The translations under genes and the position numbers were made by a program. This document shows, piece after piece, positions 16,882 through 36,323 of a stretch of 64,000 nt of DNA. Location of the stretch: NCBI GenBank assembly GCA_000004695.1, contig CM000155.2:2624001-2688000 (forward strand). The letters run 5' to 3'. How positions within the stretch are numbered: the first letter of the stretch is position 1; each line of letters starts with the position of its first letter. This DNA is from Dictyostelium discoideum. Its lineage: Eukaryota. Under the pieces are notes generated by a model that ran no database searches, had not been told where the DNA came from, and worked only from the letters and a program-made list of their open reading frames with translations.

Positions 16882-17913
16882 TTTAATTAATAAAATCATT
16901 TAACTTTGATTTATTTTTTTTTTTTTAAAAAAAATTATTTAAATAGATTTATTTATTGAATTGAAAAATTTATTTGTTTAGAAAAAAAAAATCATTAAAA
17001 CCCACCCATTTACTTCTTTTAATTTCAAGATTAAAATAGTTCTTGGTGGTAGGGTTATTAAAAATAAATTTAAGAATTTTTTCAAACTTTATAAATAATT
17101 GATTACTTTTAGAATTCTTAATACTTTTTTTTTTTTTTTTTGGATATTTTGTTGATATTTTTATTTTATTTTTTTTATTTTTATTTTTTTTATTGAAAAG
17201 AAGATATTATAAACTCTTATAAATGGTGAATCATATTTATCCAATTTACAATTTTTAAATCAGTTGAAAGAATAAAATTATTTCGATTGTACCATTTAGT
17301 TATGTAGAATTTTTAATTCATTGAAACTTTAAAATCTTAAAAAAAAAATATTCTGCGACCCGTTAAGTTTTTAATATAAAATATTAAATGAAAAGCCCCA
17401 ACATAAAATGTAGAATGAATTATTTTGATTTACGGTGATTAATTAATTTTTTTTTTTTTTTTTTCTCGCTATGACCCAACGAGATTTTCTGAAAAAAAAT
17501 ATAAACATGGATCCATTAAAAAAAAAAAATTCTCCAAAAGCAAAGAAAAATTTTTTTGTTTGCTTTAAGCGAATATCATTTGTTAACAATTTTAATTTTC
17601 TAAACAATTATTTTAAAATAACACCAATGTTTTTTTTTTTAAATAATTTTTTTTTCTGTAAAATAAACCAGATCAACTTTATATTTTTTTTTTAAAAAAA
17701 AAATCTTCAAAAACTAATAAAAATTTAAAGCGAAATATCGTTCGTAAACAATTTTAATTGTCTAAAAATTTTTTTTTTTTCTAAACACCCAACCATTTTT
17801 TTTTTTTTTTTTTTTTTTCTTATTGATTTTATTAAAATAATATTCTTGAAAGACAAAAAAAACGTGAATATTGGGGCTTAATTTGTCATACAGACACACA
17901 AGAGAAAGATTGG

Positions 17914-17968
<55 letters not shown>

Positions 17969-18030
17969 CTTATTTAAACCAAAAATTATTCTTACATTTT
18001 GTTCATTATCATTCTAAACTAATATTAAAA

Positions 18031-19476
18031 ATGATTAAATTATCAAATTTTATTTTATTATTCTTTATTTATATAACCATTTTGCTTGTAAATTCTCAAG
18101 ATATTTACGTTAATTACAACGTTCCAAAAGGTTACAGTACTTTCGATGAATGTGGTGATTGGAATACTCCTTGTGTTTCCATAGAAGATGCCGGTAAAAG
18201 AGCCATTTCAAATTCAATTGCTTCTGGTGTAGATCAATTTATCACTATTGTTGGAAATGTCGATGGAACCACATCAGCCTCATTTAGTAACTTGTACAAG
18301 TATTGTGGTACTTTAAATATCAGATCATATAATAACGTACCTGTTACAATTGATGGATCATCTTCAACTACTCCATTTATTACTATTGAAGAGAATGAAG
18401 TTGTGAGTTGTAACAAAAAAAGAAGATATATATTTAGATTCTTACAATTTGAAAACTGGGATCAAACTTTAGCAAAAATTAACATTAATCAAGAAACAAA
18501 CCTTGCCTCTATTGAAGACTCAAAGAATGTTGCTATTGCATTTTTTAACTCTAAATTGACTTCAATAAGTAGTCTTTCTCTTATATATCCAAAGAATATT
18601 GGATATGAATATAATCAGATTGCAACCTCAATTACCTTTAATACTTTAGTAGCTGAAAAATTAACATCATCTTCAACTCTCTTTGCACCAAATTCAATTA
18701 CCAACTATTTACCCCCAGTTTACATAGTTGGTGGTACAACTAGTTTCTACTCTGCCACCTTTAATGATAATAACTTTACTACCACTCCCTTCATTTATAC
18801 TGTTGGCGGAGAGTCAAGATTTACTTCAAGCATAGTTTTTAATAATAGTATCTTTTGTACTCCATTTTCATTTGCAAATGCAGCTATTGGAACTTATAGA
18901 AATTTAGTTTTCAACGACTATAAACTTACAACTTTAGTTCAAGCTACCGGAACACCAGTTTTATCTTATTCTTTAATGAATATTCATGTAACTTTAAATA
19001 CAGCCCAAGATGTCCCATCTGGTTTCTGTTCTATCAATCAATATTTGGGTTATACTTTTAGTGACTCATTCATTGTTGTAAAGGATAGTGGTAGCTCACC
19101 TATCTATTCAAATGTTTACCCATCATCATCTTCAAATCGTATTCCTGTATTAATTGATAATTCTAATGTTTCCTTTTGGCCTTACCTTAATTTAGTTGAA
19201 ACTAGTTTTGATTTTAATTTTGTCAATAGCCAGATAAGCTTGTATTATCCAATAGGTGATTCAAATGGTATTATTAGAGGAAGTAATTCAACTATAATGT
19301 TACATTCAGTAGAAGATAATAGCGTTGCTTGTGGTTGTTCAAATTGTCATTTCGATAGCATGATCGGTACAATAGAATGCCCAATAGTCACACCAACTCC
19401 ATCAACCTGTATGTGTTCTTGTCCATGTGTATCATCCTCATCATCCTCATTATCATCTTCATCATTTTCATTATAG
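18031..19476 (+). CDS. Hypothetical secreted Ser/Thr-rich protein with a cysteine-rich C-terminus
   Basis: It is a 481-aa single ORF with the N-terminal signal-peptide-like segment MIKLSNFILLFFIYITILLVNSQ. It has many N-x-S/T sites, a C-terminal CGCSNCHFDSMIGTIECP..CMCSCPC, and a poly-Ser tail. I recognise no homologue. Confidence 0.55.
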   Translation: MIKLSNFILLFFIYITILLVNSQDIYVNYNVPKGYSTFDECGDWNTPCVSIEDAGKRAISNSIASGVDQFITIVGNVDGTTSASFSNLYKYCGTLNIRSYNNVPVTIDGSSSTTPFITIEENEVVSCNKKRRYIFRFLQFENWDQTLAKININQETNLASIEDSKNVAIAFFNSKLTSISSLSLIYPKNIGYEYNQIATSITFNTLVAEKLTSSSTLFAPNSITNYLPPVYIVGGTTSFYSATFNDNNFTTTPFIYTVGGESRFTSSIVFNNSIFCTPFSFANAAIGTYRNLVFNDYKLTTLVQATGTPVLSYSLMNIHVTLNTAQDVPSGFCSINQYLGYTFSDSFIVVKDSGSSPIYSNVYPSSSSNRIPVLIDNSNVSFWPYLNLVETSFDFNFVNSQISLYYPIGDSNGIIRGSNSTIMLHSVEDNSVACGCSNCHFDSMIGTIECPIVTPTPSTCMCSCPCVSSSSSSLSSSSFSL

Positions 19477-19747
19477 AAATTAATAATCAATACAGCCAAT
19501 AGTAGATTTTAAAATAATACAAGTAAATTTTTTTTTTCAATTATTTATAAAAAATAATATCGTTTTTTAATAATAATATTGTTCTTTATTTAATTTATAA
19601 ATAATAATATTGTTCTTTATTTACAATTTTTTTTTTTTAAATTTCAATAAGCATTTGTTCAATTTTTATATGGCAAAAAAAGAATTTATTTTTGGTTTTT
19701 TTTTTTTTTTTTTTTTTTTTTTATTTTTAAATTTTAATATTTTAAAA

Positions 19748-20329
19748 ATGAATGATAACATCGATATTGTTTTTTTTAAATGTTGGAGAAATATTGTAAT
19801 TAATAGGGAGATTTTTTATTATGTATCACTATATAGACATCAAATTGAGTATTGCGTTGAAGGAGTAAGCGAACTAGGAGAAGTTGATTTAGAGATAAAG
19901 AATAAAATAATAAATTTAACTTATATGGGTCACGAAATGATTAAATATTGTTCAAGTTTTAATGATTATACATCATTAAAAAGAATAAAATTTACAAATA
20001 ATTCAATGGCTTCAATTAATGGATCTGTATTTCCTGATACAGTTGAAGAGGTTATTTATCCATGGGGTAATAATAGTGTAAATACATATCTTTCAAACCT
20101 TCCAAAATCAGTTACTTCAGTTAAAAATGTATTTTATAAATTTAGTTTAAAACCAGAATATCTTGCAGTTAATCAATATAAACCAACATTGCCACAAAAA
20201 TTATCAATTCCAAATTCAATTAAATCAATGAGTTTTAGTAAATTTTCAAAATTTAATCAAACTTTAAAACCATCGCAACAAAATGAACGAAATAATAATA
20301 ATAATAACAATAATAATAATAATAATAAT

Positions 20330-20373
<44 letters not shown>

Positions 20374-21364
20374 TGGTGATGATAAAATTAAAATACCAAA
20401 ATCAATTACATCACTTGACCTTGGAATTAATTTTATGAATGGTGGTAAAATATTAGAAGTTGGATCAATACCAAATTCAATTAAAATATTAGATTTAGGT
20501 TATTATAATTTAGAGTTATTAGAAAATGTAATACCAGATTCAGTAACATATTTAAAAGTTTATCATCCAAATAAAAATCAATTAATTTTACCAAAGAATT
20601 CAATTAAATCATTGTTAATAAGATATAATAGTATAATACCTGATAATAAAACTAGTATCAATATCCAATCAATACCATCAAGTGTAACAAAATTAGATTT
20701 AGAAACTGGTGTATTTCCAATTGATTCAAATTCAATACCATCAAGTGTAACACATTTAGAATTTAGAGAGAATTTTAATATACCAATTACAAAATCATTA
20801 CTTGAATCATGTAAAGATAGTTTAAAAATAATAAAAATACCAAACTCTTTTAATTTAATTATTGAAAATGATTCATTAAATCAATGTTTAAATTTAAAAA
20901 CTTTGGAATTTTATGAAAAGGTCAATTTAGGTTATTTCAATAGAAATGAAATTGGTTGGAATAAGGATAATTTACCATTGGATTTCTTTCCGATTTCTTT
21001 AACTTCTTTATCATTGGGTAATGGGTTTGATCAATTATTAAAACCTGGTTTATTACCACAATCATTACGTTCTCTTTATTTAGGTTCTTCTTTTAATAAA
21101 CCTTTGTTATTAAATTCTTTACCAAATGGTTTATTAGTTTTAAAGTTTAACCAAGATTCAAGATTTAATCATCCAATTGAGGTTGGAGTTTTACCAGTTA
21201 CATTAATTACTTTAGAATTTGGTTATGCATTTTCTTTTAAAATTACTGACCCAAATATTCTTCCAAAATCTTTACAATATCTAGTTTTACCAAGTGAAAC
21301 ATCTTCAATTTCAAAGAATGCAATTCCTAAATCAATTAAAGATTTAAGATATCTTTATTTTTAA
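19748..21364 (+). CDS. FNIP-repeat protein, second copy, with a polyN linker
   Basis: The ATG at 19748 lies in an AAAATG context and is in frame with the ORF-track entry. The FNIP repeats include IPNSIKILDLGYYNLE, IPSSVTKLDLETGVF, IPSSVTHLEFRENFN, LPQSLRSLYLGSSFNKP and LPVTLITLEFGYAFS. Confidence 0.7.
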
Positions 21365-21692
21365 TAAAATAAAAAAAAATTAAAGAATTAACATCTAATT
21401 CCTTATTATAAAATCTTACAAGGATTCGGAAAAATGAGAAAGATATTTATTTCCTCCCATGGGATTTTTTTTTTTTTTTTGATTCTTAGATTATAAATAA
21501 CTTTCACATAATAATAAAATGTAGAAAGTTACAAAAAAAAAAAAAAAAAAATGAAAGAGAGCACATGTGCCCAAAAAAAGTTATTATCAAATAAAAATGA
21601 ATTAATAAATCCAATACAATTTACCAACCAACCAATTAATTTATAATAATTATATAATTAAATTAATAGTTTATTTTGTTTGTTGTCTTTAA

Positions 21693-21728
<36 letters not shown>

Positions 21729-22199
21729 AAATAAATAAATAAATAAATAAATAAAAATAAAAATAAATATAAAAAATTAAAATAAATCAATATAATGGTA
21801 TCAAAGTTAAATCAATCATGAGAATAATATTAAATCAATATTAACAAAAAAAAGTGCCACTCAAAAAAATAAAAAAACACAAATCCAAAACACCTAAATT
21901 TTAATTATTCACATTTATTATTTATTTAAAAATAATAAAAATAAATAATTTATTAAGGTGCAATTGAAGATATTGCAATTAGTTAGTGTGGTTTTAAAAA
22001 TAAAAAAAAAAAAAAAATAAAAAATTATTTTTATTCTCAAAACCCTAAGACTTACCCTCTGAATTTAAAAAATTTGCAACAAAAAATATTTTGAAAAAGG
22101 GGTTAACAAAAAAAAAAAAACCACACTTCATTTATAAATGGAGCATCACACCCAAGCTCATTTCTCCAGATCCTCTATATTTATAATTTTATGGTTTTT

Positions 22200-22202
<3 letters not shown>

Positions 22203-22284
<82 letters not shown>
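22203..22284. repeat. (ATT)n microsatellite
   Basis: This is a direct read. Confidence 0.9.
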
Positions 22285-22285
<1 letters not shown>

Positions 22286-22549
22286 TTTATATTTTATTTT
22301 ATTTTTTTTTTTTTTTTTTTTTATTTTTTAAATTTTTTTTTTTTTTTTCTTTATTAAAAATTATTTTTATTAATTTTTTATTTTATCTTTTTTTTTTTTA
22401 TCTATTTATTTATTAAAAATTATATTTTCCAGTAATAATTAAATTTCTCTTTTTATATTTATCTAAATTATTAATAAAGCCAAATTCAAAAAAGTAAAAT
22501 TTAAATAAAAATGGAATAAACAATGTCTCTTATCACCAATAACTAAACT

Positions 22550-23170
22550 ACAATTAAAATAATTTGATGCCATTTCAAATCTGAGTGTTGTTTGTCATAT
22601 ATGGTATAATAAATAAAGATAATAAAGCACTTGCTTGTCGAGGTCTTATCACAGTTTCTGGTAACAAATTATTGACAAGTGACAATGAATTCAAAGTTAA
22701 AGTATTAGCAAATAATTAAAATACTACAGTAATTGTTTAAAATGAAAAGATATTAATAGTTAGAGCTGATAACATGGAGCGTCCACTCTTTGTTTCAACA
22801 TTTATTGGGAATAAACTCGGACCATATTCAATTTTGACATATTGAGATCCAAGGATTACAGTTATTAGATCGATTAAAAATAAAAGAGATGGTATTTCAA
22901 TAAGAGTGGGTGGTATTAGTTTACAAAGTATTTATTTTCAAGATTAGGACTTGAATCAGTTTCTCTTTCATGTAATTTACAATGTGGTTCTTCACCAAAT
23001 GAAACATTTTATTATAGTAATTCAAAATTAAGTTCAAGTGAAACTGATATTACAAATAGTACTGATTATTTATCATGCTATTCAAATTTAATTGTTGATG
23101 AAACATCAGGACTTTTATATCTCCAATTAGGCTCAACATCATTTAATTGTGTAAAAAACTCTTTCAAATA
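22550..23170 (+). pseudogene. Island of lower A+T with fragmented protein-like reading frames (candidate gene relic or unmodelled multi-exon gene)
   Basis: One stretch reads ..[75 protein letters not shown] and ends at a stop, and upstream pieces such as MERPLFVSTFIGNKLGPYSILTY are interrupted by stops. No consistent splice model could be built. Confidence 0.3.
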
Positions 23171-23323
23171 AAAAAAAGAAAAAGTAAAATTAAAACTTTA
23201 AAAACTTTTATTTTAATTGAAATTCAGTTTTTTTTTTAGATATTTTTAATTCAAAATCAGTTTTTTTTAAAATTTTTTTTAAATTTTTTTTTTTTTTTTT
23301 TTTTTTAAATAAAAGAAAATTGG

Positions 23324-23489
23324 ATGATGGAAGAATATCAAGAAATAAATAAAATTTTACATGAAATTGATGATGGTAATACTAAAAGAAAAGTTCAATT
23401 GGTAAAAAATAAAAAGGATGGAAAGGTAATTGAATTTTCATTTCCCACTATTTTTTTTTTTTTTATTAATAAATCTCAATCTAATGAAA

Positions 23490-23524
<35 letters not shown>

Positions 23525-23989
23525 CTTTCCAAAATTATAACAACAGTTATATGTTTGTAAAACTATAGATTTTAATAATAATAATGAAACGAAAGATAGT
23601 AAGGTTAAAAGAGAAAGAGAATATTTATTTTTAAAACAATATTCATCACCTAGCTTTTCACATTTAAATATTGCTAAATACATTAAACACTTTGAAACCA
23701 GAGATAATCATGGATACCTTCAAAAATTAACAATAATAATAGAATATTATGAGGGTGGTGATTTAACTAATTTAAAGAATTTAAACGAGTAATTAATCTT
23801 TTTTTTTTCAATTTATTTGTTTTTTTTTTTTTTTATTCTAATTTTTTTTTTTTTTTAAATAAAAATTAAAAGAGTCCTACCAAAAGATATAATTTACCTC
23901 TTTTTTACAATGTTAGTCATTTTAAAAGAATTTAAAAATTCAATTATTCATAGAGATATTAAACCTGGTATGTAATAATTGAATTTTTG

Positions 23990-24065
<76 letters not shown>

Positions 24066-26980
24066 ATAAACCCCTAACTCCTTAATAATAAAAATAAAGA
24101 GAATATATTTTTCGTTAAAAATGGACCAGATCTAGAATTTTATTTAGGAGATATGGGAAGTTCCTCAATGGTTATAACTGATCAAAAAAATACACTTATT
24201 GGTACAAATCAATATATGGCGCCTGTAAGATTTCTTTTTTTTTTTTATAAAAACTCATATATTAACAATATTAAACTGAAAACATTTATTTTTAATTTAT
24301 AGGAAATTGATTTAGGTGGATATACATGTAAAGTTGATATTTATAGTCTAGGTAAAACAATGTTATCACTTATCACTTTAGTTCATTCACCAATGAATTC
24401 AATTTTTGAATCATTATTTCAATTATGTACATTAGAGAATTTCAAAATAAGGCCATCAATAGATCAATTAATTGAATTTGTTTGTAGACAGTATGATCAA
24501 TCAAGATATACTATATCATTGTCAAGTTATACTCATCCAAACACAAGATCAATCATAAAGTATTTTAAAGATAAAAAATTCAATATACTCAAAGAAGGTG
24601 AAAAAATCAATTTTAAAATTGACATTCAAAGTAAATTTTACAATTGTATTAGTGTATATAGGGGTTTCGCTTATAATGAATATATAGTTGAAGAAGAGGA
24701 GAAAGAAAAGGAAGAATATCAAAAGGAAGAAAATCAACAATCAATTCCAAATGTTTTATCCATTGTTGAATTAATTCAACCACCATTACAGGATCTCTCC
24801 AAAGATTTTGAGAATGTATTAATAAATCATATAAATTACATTAGAGATGGTGGTATTAATGGATCTATTAGATCACTATTACATCCTGATATAATTATCA
24901 AGACTAAATGTGATAGGGTAAAAGGTTTTGAAATAAAGGCTCACTCTAATATTACTAATACCGAAGGTTTATTCATTGAAAATGCACATTTAATTTATAA
25001 ACCAGTCAATTTATCTTGGAAAAAGATATTCTTAGAAAGAGAAGACGAAATCACTCCAGATGTTCAATTAAAAGCTGTCTTCTTATCTTTATTGGTAGCT
25101 TTTAAAATCTCAAACGATGAAAATGATTTTTTAACCGGTACACTATTTGATAAACTCATGGAACATATTTATTTTGTGAAATCACCGTCACTACCACCAC
25201 CATCACAAATTTCACCAATTAAAGAACCACTCTCTTCTTATGAACTAAAGATTTCTTTCCCTTTCAACCATAGGGCTCATATCTATGGTGTAAAAGTACC
25301 TTTAAACCCAAACTATTTAAATTTGTTTTTTGGTGGTGAAATAAAGGATACTTTAATATCAAATCTTATTCAAACATTGAATGTATTTATTATTATTATT
25401 ATTATTTATTATTATTTATAATTATTTTAAAATTGTATTATTAATGTAATTTTTATTTTATCAGATATTAGCTCCAAACAATTTACAATATAAAAGCATT
25501 TTAATTAAATTAATATCAATTATTTTAAAAGAAGAGAAAAGAATTTTAAAATCATATTCAAATTTAGGTTTAGAGATTTATTTCAAAGAGTTTAATGAAA
25601 TAATTAAAAATGAAATTGCTTTAGAGGGTATTGTATCAGATAAATTATTAGTTTCAAAGATAGATACAACAAAGAAAATTGAAAAGATAAGAGGTTTTAG
25701 AAATGGTCATTCAAATTCAGATGCAGATATTTATATTTCAGAGTTTAAAGGAAAATATTATGCAATTGATAAATTTGAACATATACCCGGTCTTTTTGAA
25801 ATATTGGAACCATTTTCAAATAAAGCAATCGATGATTTTAATCAACATTTCAAATTCATTTCAACTTTTGTTGATGTCAACGAATCTTTTGGATTAGTGT
25901 ATACAATATTCGAATTACCATCATCCTTAATTAATTCTTATCAAACTACAAGAAAATCATGTGAAAATAAAAATATATTAGATAAAGATAAAACATTTAG
26001 AAATTTATTAAATCAACATCTCTCATATTATCAAAATATTCAAAATAATAGATATAAACTAAATGGAACTGATTTAACAAGTAAAAAATTAAGCTTCACG
26101 GAATGTAAGTTAAAAAACAAAATAAATAAATATATATATTCATTACAACTATTTATGTATTAAAATACACAATTTTTTTTTAATTTTTTTTAAAAATAAA
26201 ATAAAAAAAGATCAATATAATATAATTATTTCAAATGATTGTGATATACATTATTATTTTAGTTTTGTAGGTAAAAATGGTTCAGGTTTAGTTCAATCAT
26301 TCTTTGATATAGGTGCATGGGTTTATGGCGATGAAAATGTTAAAAAAATTAAAGTTTTATCATTTTTTTATTTATTACAGTGCTTATTTGATTATCAAAC
26401 AAAAAATACTCATAATAGTGTTGATATTGATTTCCCAAATATTCTCTATTATCTAAAGAAATTTTATTATTCATCACTTGTTGATTATGGTCTCAATGGA
26501 ATGGATTCTTCAAGTAAAATATTCAACTATGATTTGAATAATTCATATTCATTTATAAAAATTGGATTTTTAATTTATAATATTTTAGATTTATACAAAC
26601 CAAATATTATTCCAGATCAAACATTATATTATGATTCCGATCTAATAGTAATGTTACTAGAGAATAGTTCTAATGTAAGTTAGATTATGCTTTTATAAAA
26701 TACTATTTTGTATGTTTTTAGTTATTTATTAAAATTTACTTTTTTTTTTTTAATTAGAAATTTTTATGTTTTAGAAAACAATATTATTCAGATTTAGATA
26801 AAACAAAATTAAAATTAACTCCAGAGAATATTGTACCACAAAATAATGATAATGATAATTCAATAATTTTATTACCATTATTAATTATTAAAGATGATAT
26901 TACATCATTTCATTTCTTTGATTATAACCTTAAAGATTCAATTAAAACTATAGAAGATTTTAATAATGAAAAAGAGTAAG

Positions 26981-27011
<31 letters not shown>

Positions 27012-28524
27012 TTTATTATTTTTATTATTTTTATTATTATTATTATTATTATTTTTCTCATTTTCAATTGCTTTTTAAAGTTATTCAAATATAGTTATAA
27101 TTAGATGTTTATTATATTATCTACAAAACATTCAAAAGAATCCATCAAATGCAAATTCATTGGTTTTAATTAATTTAAATTTATTTGAAGAAAATGAAAG
27201 TACTGATAATGAATCATTTTTATTTTTTGATATCTTTTATTTAATTAAACAACTACATGGTCTTTCAACAATAATTGATAGTTGGGTAAGTTTGGAATCA
27301 TTTTATAACCACTTTATTATTAGATATTTCTTCATCTATATATATAATACTAATTATTCCAAAATTTATATAGGATAACTTTATTTCATCATTATCAAAA
27401 CCTATATCATTGGTTTCAAATTATATTCAAACCAATTTAAAAAAGATATTAGATGATCCACTATCAATAGATATACTATATAATGATGAATCAATGAGTC
27501 ATTTCAAACCTTTTATATATGATAAAATTAAGGAAATAAAAAAAAACGTTTGGTTAATTAGAGATAAAAATAATAATGTAATTTTTTATCATTTATATAT
27601 ATAAAAAAAAACAATTTTATTAACATATATAAATGTTTTTTTTTTTTTATAGAATTATATTAGAAAATTAAGTGGATACATTAAATCTAAATTTAAAGAA
27701 GTTGAGAAATATGGTTTTGAATTCATAGATGATGTTTCAATTTCAAATCCTTATTTAAAAATTGCAGTAGAAAATGGTTGGCCAATTTCATTTTTATCAA
27801 GCCATTTTAAAAGAGATAATTCAAATCTTTTTGATTATTTATTTAATAAAGAGTTAATAATATTAGAATTATTGAAAGAAAAAGGAGTTGATGGGATTTC
27901 TCAATTGGAATCCTATTTTGTTGAAAATAATATCATTTATATTTTGACAAAGTACCATGGTGATTATTCAAATTTAGAAGAAATCAATGAATTAAACCAA
28001 GAGGATTTATTTGAAATTTTAGTTCAAATGAGTGACAAATTGAAGATATTAGAAAGTTTACAAATATACCATAGAGATATTAAACCTGAAAATATATTAT
28101 TTAAACGTGAAATTGTTAATGGTAACATTCAATCAAAAGTATGTCTAATTGATTTCAGTATCTCTGATTTTGGTTTTATTCTTAAAACAAATGAATCCGG
28201 TTCAAAAATGTATCAAGCACCTGAAATCTATCAAGAAGAATATAGATCAAAAGAAAACGATATTACAAATCAACATTATAAATTGGACATTTACAGTTTA
28301 GGTTTTACATTATCTCATTTAATGAAAAAATTCAATTGTAACCCTCCTTCATTAGTTCAAATTGTCAAAAAGATGATAAAACATAAGGCATGTTTTTTTT
28401 TTTTTTTTTTTTTTTTTGATAATAAAAAAAAAACACCTACTAACATTTAATATTTTTAATTTAGCCTGATGAACGTATAAGTTTAGATGATTTAATAGTT
28501 TTGTTGAAACAACCAACTTTATAA
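23324..28524 (+). CDS. Large multi-exon protein with two protein-kinase-like domains (the N-terminal one with HRDIKPEN and YMAPE, the C-terminal one with HRDIKPENILF and MYQAPE). The model is approximate and shows apparent frame disruptions
   Basis: The approximate exons are 23324-23425, 23547-23758, 23875-23967, 24100-24224, 24303-25382, 25465-26104, 26271-26674, 26758-26976, 27081-27288, an exon ending at 27577 (its start was not resolved), 27653-28387 and 28465-28524. Most junctions use canonical GTAAGT/GTATGT donors and AG acceptors with matching phases. Three problems remain. A +1 frame change occurs near 23697-23702, between ..NIAKYIKHFET and RDNHGYLQKLTIIIEYYEGG. A frame change occurs near 26935-26945 inside exon 8. 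The last intron (28388-28464) needs a GC donor (AAG|GCATGT) to stay in frame. Confidence 0.45.
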
Positions 28525-29070
28525 ATTTTCAACAAATCATTCATTGTATTTTTTTTTTTTTTTTGTTGAATTTGTATGGAAAAAAAAAATTTTAAATTAA
28601 TTTAAAAATAAATAAATAAATTAAATAAATTTACAAAAAAAAAAATAATAAAGAACGGAAATAGAAAAAAGAATGAAAAAAAAATAAAAAAAAAAAAAAA
28701 GAAAAATAAAAAGAAAAGTATTGTTTCACCAAAACAAAATATCTCTATTTTTATTTATTTTTTTATTTTTTTTTAATTTTTTTTTTTTTTTTTGACTCTC
28801 CACAATCCAAAAGAACCCATTGAATAAAATTTTTAATTTTTCGAGACGTGTGGATGGAAAAAAAAAAAAATTAAATTAAAATTTAGGTTGATCAAAAAAA
28901 AATAAAAAAAAAAATAAAAACAATAGAAAATATCATTTTTTTTTTTTATTTTTTTATTAATAATATATTTTTTTTTTTTTACAATTGTTTTTTTACTTTT
29001 CCAATTTTTTTATTAATAACTTTTATTTTTATTTTTTAGATGTATATATTAATTTAAATTATACCACTGG

Positions 29071-29109
<39 letters not shown>

Positions 29110-29193
29110 AAATAAAATAAAAAAAAAAAAATAAAATAAATTATACCACTAATATAAATAAAAAAAAAAAAAGGAAAAAGGTAAAAAGGAAAA

Positions 29194-30513
29194 ATGAAGA
29201 ATATGTTAAATATAATTTTAACATTGACAATAATTTTTATAGGATTAATTAAAATTTCAATATCAAGTGATAGTGGATCATCAGAAAATGGTATTTATTT
29301 TTATACATATGATACAATTTGCGAATTTACAAATTCTATAAGAGATGACGATCAGTATGAATTATATTATGTACAAGCACCATTGATGTATGCAATTTAT
29401 GGTGATCTTTTCGAAAAGATTAATGCTTATCATAGTGGTGTTGGATTTTATAATTTAAATGGTGGGCCAAATATATCAATAGATTATTTCGCAGGTCCAA
29501 CCCTAGAGGATGCATTAATACCACAGAATATTACAAAAGATTCACAAGGAAATTATAATTTAACATGGAATACTTATGGATTAATAGAAGTTACCAATTA
29601 TATTAATGAAACTTATTGGAGTAAAAGAGAATTGATTATGTATGGACTTACAGGCTTACAAGTCAAACAGTATTTAAGTTGGGCTCCAATATATAACCAA
29701 ACTCATCCAGTTTATAATTTATTTAGTATTGCATCAGCTGATGCCAGTGGTAGTGGTGATAATGGTTATTTAGAAACAATATTACATAATTTAGGTATTG
29801 GTGGTGGTGGTGGTGGTAGTGGTAGTGAAAATTTAATAGTTTATCAAAATAGTAGTACTTGTGATGATTTCGTCTGGGCAAGTTTTAATACTATTTATCA
29901 ATTAGGTGGTACTTTAGTTGGTATGCAAAGTAATCCTCCAAAAGATCAAATAACATTATTTACAACTGATGAACCAACTATTGTGGATTATAATAATATT
30001 ACACAAAGGAATCAATTGGCAAGCTTTTATATTAATTTAATGGGTATTGCAAATAAGAATGAAAGTGCTCTTCAAATATTCCAAGAATTAATATCATTAT
30101 TTAATGGTACATTCTATTGTTATATAGATGGTGTTTATTATGAATTACATTTATCCAAACCAACACCAATTTCATTTACATATCAACCATCACCAATGCC
30201 AACAGGTCAAAGAAATTCAAATTCTATAGAAACACTTAATAATTGTTATTCGAAATCTTCAACTGATAATCAATCATTTTTCAATAGATTTTCAAAAATT
30301 CAAATCATTTTCATATCTATAGCTATTGGATTTGGTGTTGTAATAATATTATACATATCAATTGGTATTATGGTTAATAAGTCTAGAGGTAAATCTGGTA
30401 CAAACTTAATTCCAAATAAAAAATTATGGACTTCCATTGGTTCTAAATTTAAAAGAGATAATAATAAAAATAATTATAAACCATTGTTATATAATGAAAA
30501 TACAATTCAATAA
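29194..30513 (+). CDS. Hypothetical type I membrane glycoprotein (signal peptide, large N-glycosylated ectodomain, a single C-terminal transmembrane helix)
   Basis: It is a 439-aa single ORF beginning MKNMLNIILTLTIIFIGLIKISIS. It has many NxS/T sites and a Gly-rich tract, a transmembrane segment IQIIFISIAIGFGVVIILYISIGIMV, and a basic tail. Confidence 0.55.
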   Translation: MKNMLNIILTLTIIFIGLIKISISSDSGSSENGIYFYTYDTICEFTNSIRDDDQYELYYVQAPLMYAIYGDLFEKINAYHSGVGFYNLNGGPNISIDYFAGPTLEDALIPQNITKDSQGNYNLTWNTYGLIEVTNYINETYWSKRELIMYGLTGLQVKQYLSWAPIYNQTHPVYNLFSIASADASGSGDNGYLETILHNLGIGGGGGGSGSENLIVYQNSSTCDDFVWASFNTIYQLGGTLVGMQSNPPKDQITLFTTDEPTIVDYNNITQRNQLASFYINLMGIANKNESALQIFQELISLFNGTFYCYIDGVYYELHLSKPTPISFTYQPSPMPTGQRNSNSIETLNNCYSKSSTDNQSFFNRFSKIQIIFISIAIGFGVVIILYISIGIMVNKSRGKSGTNLIPNKKLWTSIGSKFKRDNNKNNYKPLLYNENTIQ

Positions 30514-30606
30514 AAATAAATAAATAAAAAAAAACAAAGTAAAAAATAAATAAAAAAATAAATAAATAATTTTTTTTTTTTAATCAATCTTATTTATAAA
30601 ATTCTT

Positions 30607-34323
<3,717 letters not shown>

Positions 34324-34438
34324 ATTATTAATGTATATGTAAATAAATATATATAAATATATATCCTATTACATATACGAATATATGTAATATTAATTTA
34401 TTTATTTGTAATTATTATTTTTTGATTTTAACAATAAT

Positions 34439-34477
<39 letters not shown>

Positions 34478-34869
34478 AAAAAAAAACTTCCAAATTTAAA
34501 TTTTTTGGAGGGAAAATAATTATTTATTTTTGGAAAAAAAAAAAAAAAAAAATTAATTATAAATCATTAAGAACATTTCTTAGACTTTAAATTCTTATGG
34601 AAATTATTTATTATTAAATATCTTGATTAAATTTATTTTAAAAAAAAAAAAAAAAAAAAAATAGATAGATATCTTTAGAGGCCACTAAAAAAAAAAGTAA
34701 ATATTTTCGGAGGTCATATAAAAAAAAAAAAAAAAATTTAAAACCCAAATTATTATAATATTACTACAAAAATTTTAATTTACTTCCTCTTGTTCTTTTA
34801 TTTATAAATTTAACTAAAAAAATAACAAAAAAAAGGTTTATCCAAATTTTTTTTTTTTTTTTAATTTTT

Positions 34870-36323
34870 TCACTTCCATTTAGATATTTGAACCAATCTA
34901 TTTATTAATCTTAAATATTGTAAATCTTTTTCTAAATCTTTTCTTATTTCTAAATCATGATAATTCATTATTTTAAAAACATTACATGGTTGAACTAAAA
35001 TATATATATATATATAATTAGAATATTGATATCTTTTAATTTGAAATAATTATAATTATTATACATACCAGGTAATTCATAATTAGAAGTGACTAAACCT
35101 GCATATTCGGATGTTGAAACTTGATCAGAAAAAGTGATAGCTAAAATGGGAACAATACCCAAAGCAATTGATTCTTTCATTCTTTTTTCCATTTTTCTCA
35201 TTGTTTCAACACTGGTGAAACTTTTTATTGATACAACAAATAAGAATACATTAACTGAAAATTCTGGTTTAGGAATACTGCCAATATTAAATTTTTCATT
35301 AATTGCTAAATTATTATAAACTCTACCCTGAACTTTATATTTTAATTCTATATCACTATCACATAATCCCCACTATTTATAAAAAAAAAAAAAACCCATT
35401 GATTAGTTTTATTATAATTAAATAATTAAACAATTATAATAATAATTAACTTACAGTATCTACGAATGAAATATCAAAACCACTTAAAAATGAATTTGAA
35501 AATGGATCATTTGAATAATTTGAATCGATAATACTTTTAATTGATCTATAAGTGATACGATTAGTTGAGAAATAAGTGCTACCACCATGTTCTTCAGAGA
35601 AATTTTGTTGAATTGTAGAAGATAAATTGAAAAGATTAATTAAACCCATAATTAAAGAAGTTTTACCTGAAGAAGCACAACCTTCCAAACCAATGGTTAA
35701 ACGTTTATTTGGTTTTAAATCACCTAAATACCAACTGATATTTGGATACATATTACTGAAATAATTAACACCAATATCCAAAGTAAATTGTACATTTATA
35801 TTAAACATTGGCTGAAATGAACAACCTAAATTTCGTTGAAATTCATTAAAAGTTATTAATTGTTTATAATATGTACCTGTTGTTGAAGTTGTTGATGCAA
35901 TGATTGCTGCTGCTGCTGCTGATGTTATTGATGATGATGATGATGATGTTGTTGTTGTTGTAGTCATTGTTGAAGTATTTGTAATTGATGGATGAAGACT
36001 TAGTGTATTAGGTATTTCAATTGATTGAGAACCATAAAATTTATTTGTAAATATAATTTTCGTACCTTTTACAACATTATTTTGAATATCTTTTGGTGAA
36101 ACTATAACCATAATCTCCAAATTATCCTTAATTGGTGATAATGTTTGACTTGAAATTAAAAATGCTTCAATTCTAATTGGTAAATTATAAACTTCTCTAA
36201 AATGAATTTTAAATTGATAAAGTTTATTATTCTCCTGATGATTTGTTAATGAAATATTTGAATTAGAAGAGGATGATATCGGTATTGGTTGTGGTAATAT
36301 ATTTAAACTATTACTATTATTAC

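Follow-up and report, generated by a model that had tools for sequence, protein, structure and literature searches.

The 64,000-nucleotide stretch of Dictyostelium discoideum AX4 DNA analyzed here (contig CM000155.2, positions 2,624,001 to 2,688,000 of the forward strand; hereafter the window, in which all coordinates are counted) contains, at 23324–28524 on the plus strand, the gene DDB_G0293292, named DDB0219988 in the kinome. The locus is in all likelihood an intact, functional D. discoideum gene encoding a Dictyostelium-specific dual-domain kinase of the family Other/Dicty9. Its 12 exons are joined into a single uninterrupted open reading frame (ORF) of 1,389 codons (4,170 nt including the stop codon, divisible by three) with no internal stop. 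The continuity of the ORF, the identity of the gene, its conservation and the presence of a GC dinucleotide at the donor of the last intron in the DNA of two assemblies were established directly. The gene is already catalogued, and its kinase family and domain content have been described in the kinome paper (Goldberg et al. 2006, PMC1420674), which was the only publication found in the literature to name the gene or the family.

Gene identity and exon–intron structure

In a search with the spliced product, the top match was XP_629228.1 (UniProt Q54C38), deposited for AX4 as ‘hypothetical protein DDB_G0293292’ with a length of 1,371 aa. Exon-by-exon mapping of this reference protein onto the window gave zero mismatches, and the 12-exon model departs from it at two junctions only. 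The protein KAM9944370.1 (ACTFIT_009067, 1,388 aa), which NCBI annotated more recently on a different D. discoideum assembly, is the product of the 12-exon model with the second Met as its start. The sequence of DDB0219988 in Table S2 of the kinome paper, beginning MMEEYQEINKILHEIDDGNTKRK..., agrees with the 12-exon model as well.

The 12 exons and the boundaries of the gene had been proposed in a preliminary description of this DNA, which also regarded the splice signals as mostly canonical; the spliced ORF bears out both, with a GT donor at 10 of 11 introns and a GC donor at the last. The peptides quoted there are all present in the product, namely, HRDIKPENIFF at aa 141, GDMGSS at aa 163, YMAPEIDLGG at aa 185, HRDIKPENILF at aa 1265, DFSISDFG at aa 1292, MYQAPE at aa 1311 and PDERISLDDL at aa 1371.

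Exon 1 (23324–23425), placed by the spliced model and by the gene structures of relatives, ends in phase 0 at the donor AAG/GTAATT (a slash marks the splice site). Exon 2 (23547–23788) is followed by exon 3 (23873–23967), which ends with HRDIKP and the first base of a Glu codon, and by exon 4 (24100–24224), encoding ENIFF, GDMGSS and YMAP. The end of the N-terminal kinase domain and the start of the linker are encoded by exon 5 (24303–25382). Exons 6 (25465–26104), 7 (26211–26674) and 8 (26758–26975) precede exon 9 (27081–27285), for which the acceptor AG at 27079–27080 is indicated by a conserved peptide and by KAM9944370.1. Exon 10 (27374–27577) is followed by exon 11 (27653–28387), which contains the bulk of the C-terminal kinase domain and ends with ...KMIKHK in phase 0, and by exon 12 (28465–28524), consisting of PDERISLDDLIVLLKQPTL and the stop codon. 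All exons are on the plus strand. Introns 5 (25383–25464) and 8 (26976–27080) are composed mostly of trinucleotide repeats of the (TTA)n/(ATT)n type, as a result of which other frames contain long spurious ORFs with many I, L and Y.

Continuity of the reading frame

According to the preliminary description, continuous coding required a 1-nt skip at about 23700 and another at about 26940 inside exon 8. Both sites lie in single stop-free frames, and exons 2 and 8, which span them, are coding throughout. At the first site, NIAKYIKHFET and RDNHGYLQKLTIIIEYYEGG, formerly assigned to different frames, are contiguous in the stop-free segment 23541–23789; frame 2 of the three-frame translation reads ...NIAKYIKHFETRDNHGYLQKLTIIIEYYEGGDLTNLKNLNE in this segment, and the joined peptide NIAKYIKHFETRDNHGYLQKLTIIIEYYEGG is located at aa 75 of the spliced product. 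The second site lies within the stop-free segment 26758–26976, in frame 0. The runs of A named as targets for resequencing are absent, since positions 23695–23702 read AAACCAGA and positions 26938–26945 read TCAATTAA.

All exons of the gene are identical to the window in an independent D. discoideum assembly (GCA_054883475.1, locus L004), including exon 2 with its stop-free frame and exon 8, which lies within a stretch of 100% identity; sequencing error at the exon sites is therefore excluded. Given the continuous frames, the missing A-runs and the identical second assembly, the frame breaks are counting errors of a first, manual reading and are absent from the DNA. Real frame disruptions near 23700 and 26940, caused by sequence error, decay or programmed frameshifting, have next to no probability: the annotated protein also reads straight across both sites, no support for disruption was found, and a true frameshift was seen only in other samples and not in the window, as a 2-bp deletion at 25038–25039. 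Programmed ribosomal frameshifting or recoding was ruled out, as neither site needs a change of frame and the quoted coordinates contain no homopolymer and no slippery sequence. The unusual processing and local sequence errors that had been invoked for these breaks, as well as gene decay, thus have nothing left to explain.

The sole differences between the window and the independent assembly are in homopolymer length, in the poly-T of intron 1 (about 32 nt, 23490–23525) and the poly-A of intron 3 (about 74 nt, 23990–24063), which are shorter in that assembly by 8 and 56 nt, respectively. They represent either length polymorphism or assembly uncertainty.

Conservation, selection and a frameshift allele

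Full-length relatives of the protein were found in D. cf. discoideum (P0002, 82% identity) and D. citrinum (P0003, 72%), together with a paralogue (P0004, 33%). Exon structures rebuilt from the annotated proteins showed that all 11 intron positions and phases are common to the gene of D. cf. discoideum, and that the loci of D. citrinum and the paralogue retain the introns of the window gene, plus one or two extra. The neighbours of the paralogue locus differ from those of the window gene. In the ORF listing for 17000–36000 no second kinase gene was seen; no search aimed at a tandem paralogue was made.

The ratio of nonsynonymous to synonymous substitution rates (dN/dS, Nei–Gojobori method) was 0.48 in the comparison with D. 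cf. discoideum and 0.35 in that with D. citrinum; the three parts of the protein (N-terminal domain, linker and C-terminal domain) gave similar values. These values indicate moderate purifying selection on DDB_G0293292, not neutrality. A pseudogene or decaying gene, the latter having been suggested in the preliminary description, is ruled out by the uninterrupted 4,170-nt ORF, by dN/dS below the neutral value and by the identical exons of the second assembly, and the intron structure common to orthologues also speaks against decay.

The 2-bp deletion, of AG at 25038–25039 in exon 5, was found in genomic contigs of at least three runs (SRR26869257, SRR26869268 and SRR28564540; loci L005, L006 and L007). 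The protein encoded by this allele (P0123) is cut short after about residue 434 and terminates in ...KKIFLERRRNHSRCSIKSCLLIFIGSF and a stop. The deletion haplotype is further marked by an insertion of two T at 24234 (intron 4) and by the loss of 11 bp at 26171–26181 (intron 6). Some D. discoideum material therefore carries a disrupted copy of the gene, but the deletion is not located at the sites of the claimed frame breaks. It has the appearance of a loss-of-function allele, of natural or laboratory origin, and could provide a ready-made loss-of-function strain.

The last intron and its GC donor

Intron 11 (28388–28464, plus strand, 77 nt) is of the form AAG/GCATGT ... TACTAAC ... TTTAG/CC. 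In the preliminary description a GC donor had been considered necessary to keep the final intron in frame; for the frame to continue into the conserved C-terminus, the GC at 28388–28389 must indeed be the donor. Since the independent assembly carries the same GC, this donor is not a sequencing error. The final introns of the orthologous and paralogous loci (L001, L002 and L003) occupy the same codon boundary in phase 0 and have GT donors, namely, AAT/GTATGT, AAT/GTAAGT or CAT/GTATGT, at the place where the window has AAG/GCATGT.

For scoring, a splice-site matrix was derived from 46 undisputed donors and 45 acceptors of the loci of this gene family; it discriminates donors well, while its acceptor part is of little use and contradicts the conservation evidence at intron 8. 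With positions +1/+2 ignored, the context of the GC donor scored 6.4, above 31 of the 46 training donors. The AG at 28463–28464 is preceded, at a distance of about 20 nt, by a branch-site-like TACTAAC (CTAAC core at 28440–28444), downstream of which it is the first AG. Accordingly, intron 11 has the features of U2-type GC–AG introns: GC at +1/+2, an otherwise consensus donor with consensus flanks, a normal branch site and an AG acceptor; in relatives, its position is occupied by a GT intron. A U12-type intron was rejected, since GCATGT differs from the U12 donor consensus as generally known.

The exon downstream of this intron has the properties of coding sequence. Its peptide PDERISLDDLIVLLKQPTL, corresponding to kinase subdomain XI, follows the pattern xD(E/K)R(I/L)(S/N)L... 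conserved in both orthologues and the paralogue, with an Arg invariant in all four sequences. Differences of exon 12 from D. cf. discoideum are mostly synonymous (dN/dS 0.25), and the G+C content of 28465–28498 is 29.4%, which is exon-like (23.4% in exons, 11.2% in introns). Comparison of these sequences indicates that the GC donor is very probably used in vivo, and the GC–AG model predicts the exon 11–12 junction ...AAACATAAG/CCTGATGAACG....

The last intron is most likely derived from an ancestral GT intron, such as that of the sister species, by a T-to-C substitution at +2 in the D. discoideum lineage. Along with this substitution, the last exon base (position -1) has become G (AAT to AAG), a change expected to improve pairing with U1. 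Functional GC donors have a strong preference for G at -1 in the GC–AG consensus. Intron 11 is then a clean case of conversion of a GT donor to GC in a genome where GC–AG introns make up about 0.1% of the total.

Discrepancies with the reference protein

In the AX4 reference model the last intron is placed at 28392–28498 (GT–AG, phase 1), and the protein ends with ...KHKAFLLKQPTL at 1,371 aa. This model is deposited (P0001, XP_629228.1, Q54C38), has canonical GT–AG borders and maps exactly onto the window, but it is very improbable. Its donor CAT/GTTTTT at 28392 scores -2.0, below all but one of the 46 training donors, and its acceptor scores 0.9; the nearest AG downstream of the TACTAAC motif is bypassed; an intron of this phase and position occurs in no orthologue or paralogue; and the conserved subdomain XI peptide is deleted, including the invariant Arg.

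The second discrepancy is at the acceptor of intron 8, for which the reference model takes the AG at 27103–27104 (exon from 27105), while the 12-exon model and KAM9944370.1 take the AG at 27079–27080. The 24 nt omitted by the reference model encode YSNIVIIR, which is identical in D. cf. discoideum and D. citrinum and reads YSNIIILR in the paralogue. The length of exon 9 in the 12-exon model, 205 nt, is the same as at the orthologous locus L001. The two candidate junctions are ...GAAAAAGA/TTATTCAAAT... and ...GAAAAAGA/ATGTTTATT.... Use of one or the other leaves the frame unchanged, so that both may serve as alternative 3' sites, 24 nt apart. Judging from conservation, the AX4 reference protein is probably wrong both at the last intron and at the intron 8 acceptor, and 18 residues short, lacking YSNIVIIR and the subdomain XI peptide. 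Q54C38 should then give way to the 1,389-aa GC–AG model, already adopted by the annotation of the newer assembly.

Several observations weigh against an intact, functional gene with a working GC donor. Values of dN/dS of 0.35–0.5 represent moderate constraint only, the frameshift allele in other samples suggests that the gene may be dispensable, and the literature search yielded no biochemical or genetic work on a Dicty9 kinase. At 3 of 3,309 (0.09%), GC–AG introns form a very small share of those surveyed in D. discoideum (Iwata and Gotoh 2011, supplement, PMC3033335), and the prior for the use of any one GC donor is therefore low. The acceptor at 28464 scores low on the matrix (2.7), although still above that of the reference model, and at intron 8 the acceptor matrix favours the annotated site (5.9 vs. 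3.3). The Logan contigs for the gene are genomic, with introns in place; exact scans of metagenome contigs found neither the GC-donor junction AAACATAAG/CCTGATGAA nor the annotated junction AAGGCAT/TTTTGTTG.

The rarity of GC–AG introns, the loss-of-function allele and the only moderate purifying selection are also consistent with another explanation, in which the T-to-C substitution at +2 crippled the last donor, so that the C-terminal kinase domain loses subdomain XI and decay has begun, at the 3' end only. Both products expected in this case were computed and terminate early: with intron 11 retained the protein ends with ...[23 protein letters not shown], and with the cryptic GT at 28392 joined to the normal acceptor it ends with ...KHKAS. 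Such a crippled donor is unlikely, however, as the context AAG/GCATGT is above the median of the donors of the family when +1/+2 are left aside, and the G at -1, generally known to be typical of functional GC donors, is present. Exon 12, moreover, is open up to a conserved stop, with its mostly synonymous differences and exon-like composition, and the independent annotation KAM9944370.1 chose the GC–AG model.

The two kinase domains

The presence of two kinase domains, one in each half of the protein, was confirmed by the Pfam profile for Pkinase (PF00069, gathering cut-off 31.7 bits). The N-terminal domain (aa 1–258, 23324–24512) scored 97.6 bits and the C-terminal domain (aa 1087–1389, 27461–28524; match to ULK2 with E = 1e-9) scored 57.3 bits, both on the plus strand and above the cut-off; the better preserved domain is thus the N-terminal one and not, as had been supposed, the second. 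No Pfam domain was detected in the 833 aa between them.

The best solved relatives of the N-terminal domain in the PDB are NEK1 (E = 2.4e-18) and NEK2 (E = 2.5e-15), with an alignment spanning VAIK, HRD, DFG and APE. The domain retains the beta3 Lys K39 (YVCK), the alphaC Glu E59, the HRD Asp D143, N148, D164 (in DMG) and APE; K39, E59, D143, N148 and D164 are invariant among the relatives. Its Gly-loop is degenerate (DDGNTK), with IDDGNTKRKV in place of IGEGSFGKA of NEK1, so that one Gly is kept and the canonical GxGxxG pattern is lacking. The absence of a regular Gly-loop and of DFG had been pointed out in the preliminary description, and both observations stand, with the qualification that DMG keeps the Asp; the suggestion based on them, that the domain is a pseudokinase, is not supported. 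A domain is usually classed as a pseudokinase when the VAIK Lys, the HRD Asp or the DFG Asp is missing, and here each of them is found and conserved. By the activity criterion of the kinome paper (PMC1420674), the presence of equivalents of K72, D166 and D184, the N-terminal domain does not count as a pseudokinase either.

In the C-terminal domain, the HRD Asp D1267, N1272 and D1292–F1293 are invariant (DFS in this protein and DFG in the paralogue), and the alphaC Glu is E1192. The ‘DFG’ located downstream, at 1297, is not conserved in relatives. There are two invariant candidates for the beta3 Lys, K1130 (NYIRK) and K1161 (PYLK), and the Pfam alignment begins only at profile position 45. The domain has no Gly-loop, and a large insert is present between beta3 and alphaC. 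In Table S2 of PMC1420674 the Lys of this domain is annotated as ‘PYLK ... K72 alignment questionable’, and both domains are rated ‘active, qualified’, with G52 as the sole residue missing in each.

Comparison of the two domains shows that they are related (34% identity over 128 aa, E = 3e-11), as expected if they arose by internal duplication. DDB0219988 is one of three proteins with two eukaryotic protein kinase domains both belonging to Dicty9, the others being DDB0230037, of which the paralogue P0004 is the counterpart, and DDB0231281, and the family was ascribed to tandem duplication of one kinase class (PMC1420674). The paralogue has the same architecture and most intron positions in common with the window gene. 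The published entry is the same gene with an identical sequence and motif line, with DMG and DFS replacing DFG; what is added here to the published account is 18 residues of the AX4 protein and a candidate third, dead fold, not described in that paper.

From its N-terminus to its C-terminus, the protein comprises an NEK-like kinase domain, a linker of about 830 aa restricted to the lineage, and a second kinase domain that is more divergent. NEK kinases are the nearest solved relatives of the N-terminal domain, but the kinome (PMC1420674) assigns it to a Dictyostelium-specific family and not to NEK, and it differs by the degenerate Gly-loop and DMG; the dual-domain architecture and the linker have no counterpart in NEKs. 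With the tandem proteins JAK (JH2–JH1), GCN2 and RSK/MSK, the likeness is in general fold and architecture only, with no family-specific sequence relationship; in contrast to them, both terminal domains here keep catalytic residues and are about 830 aa apart. The conserved catalytic loops and metal-binding Asp suggest an atypical, probably catalytically competent tandem kinase. By analogy with two-kinase proteins, one domain would regulate or prime the other across the linker, and the loss of the Gly-loop in both would imply unusual handling of the nucleotide. Catalytic activity and interplay of the two domains are inferred, as the most likely reading of these comparisons.

A candidate third kinase-like fold in the linker

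The linker is confined to this lineage, with only eight relatives recovered by an exhaustive HMMER search covering 1.84 billion representative proteins. A cryptic kinase-like (pseudokinase) fold is predicted within it at aa about 610–879 (25648–26563, plus strand). A first AF2 model of the linker, from 4 sequences, was too poor to use (predicted local distance difference test, pLDDT, 44.8), and its Foldseek matches were weak. A model from 7 more diverse sequences reached pLDDT 60.9 and a predicted template modelling score (pTM) of 0.66. The elements of the latter model follow the order beta1-beta2-beta3-alphaC-beta4-beta5-alphaD-alphaE-beta-beta-alphaF, and by eye the order of strands and helices in aa about 610–880 is kinase-like. 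All top 50 Foldseek matches of this model are of the protein-kinase-like fold, including the pseudokinases of PAN3, MLKL and RNase L, as well as PERK and GCN2; the best E-value is 6.6e-4 with TM of only 0.3–0.4, and the model is of medium confidence.

Sequence-based searches gave negative results. Pfam gave no match in the linker of the window protein or in that of distant relatives, and no kinase was among the results when PDB sequences were searched with linker profiles. Alignment of linker profiles to the N-terminal kinase profile by hhalign gave a probability of 0.3% with 4 sequences and 1.5% with 7 sequences. The VAIK Lys, HRD and DFG are absent from the segment at aa about 610–879, and for this reason the third fold, if a kinase fold, would be dead. 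The modelled structure gives the presence of such a catalytically dead domain in the linker a chance approaching even.

A broader proposal is a little more doubtful still: Dicty9 proteins would be kinase–pseudokinase–kinase triads, in which the central pseudokinase scaffolds or regulates the others, and DDB_G0293292 would in addition have undergone a recent change from GT–AG to a functional GC–AG intron with a compensating G at -1. If true, the third fold would make the Dicty9 family more interesting for the study of tandem kinase regulation.

Genomic surroundings

The G+C content of the window is about 22%, with long A/T homopolymers between genes and short AT-rich introns. The neighbours of DDB_G0293292 agree with those of the orthologous loci and comprise an FNIP-repeat gene upstream, a CLN5 homologue and a kinesin-like ORF. 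The CLN5 homologue, identified by correspondence with the orthologous loci, is a single-exon ORF of 439 aa at 29194–30513 on the plus strand. The kinesin-like ORF, of 1,238 aa, is located at 30607–34323 on the minus strand, has a kinesin motor-like N-terminus and is likewise assigned by synteny. Three tRNA genes are present at the start of the window on the minus strand, at 351–423, 493–575 and 1762–1834, namely, two of tRNA-Ala(AGC) and one of tRNA-Leu(TAA).

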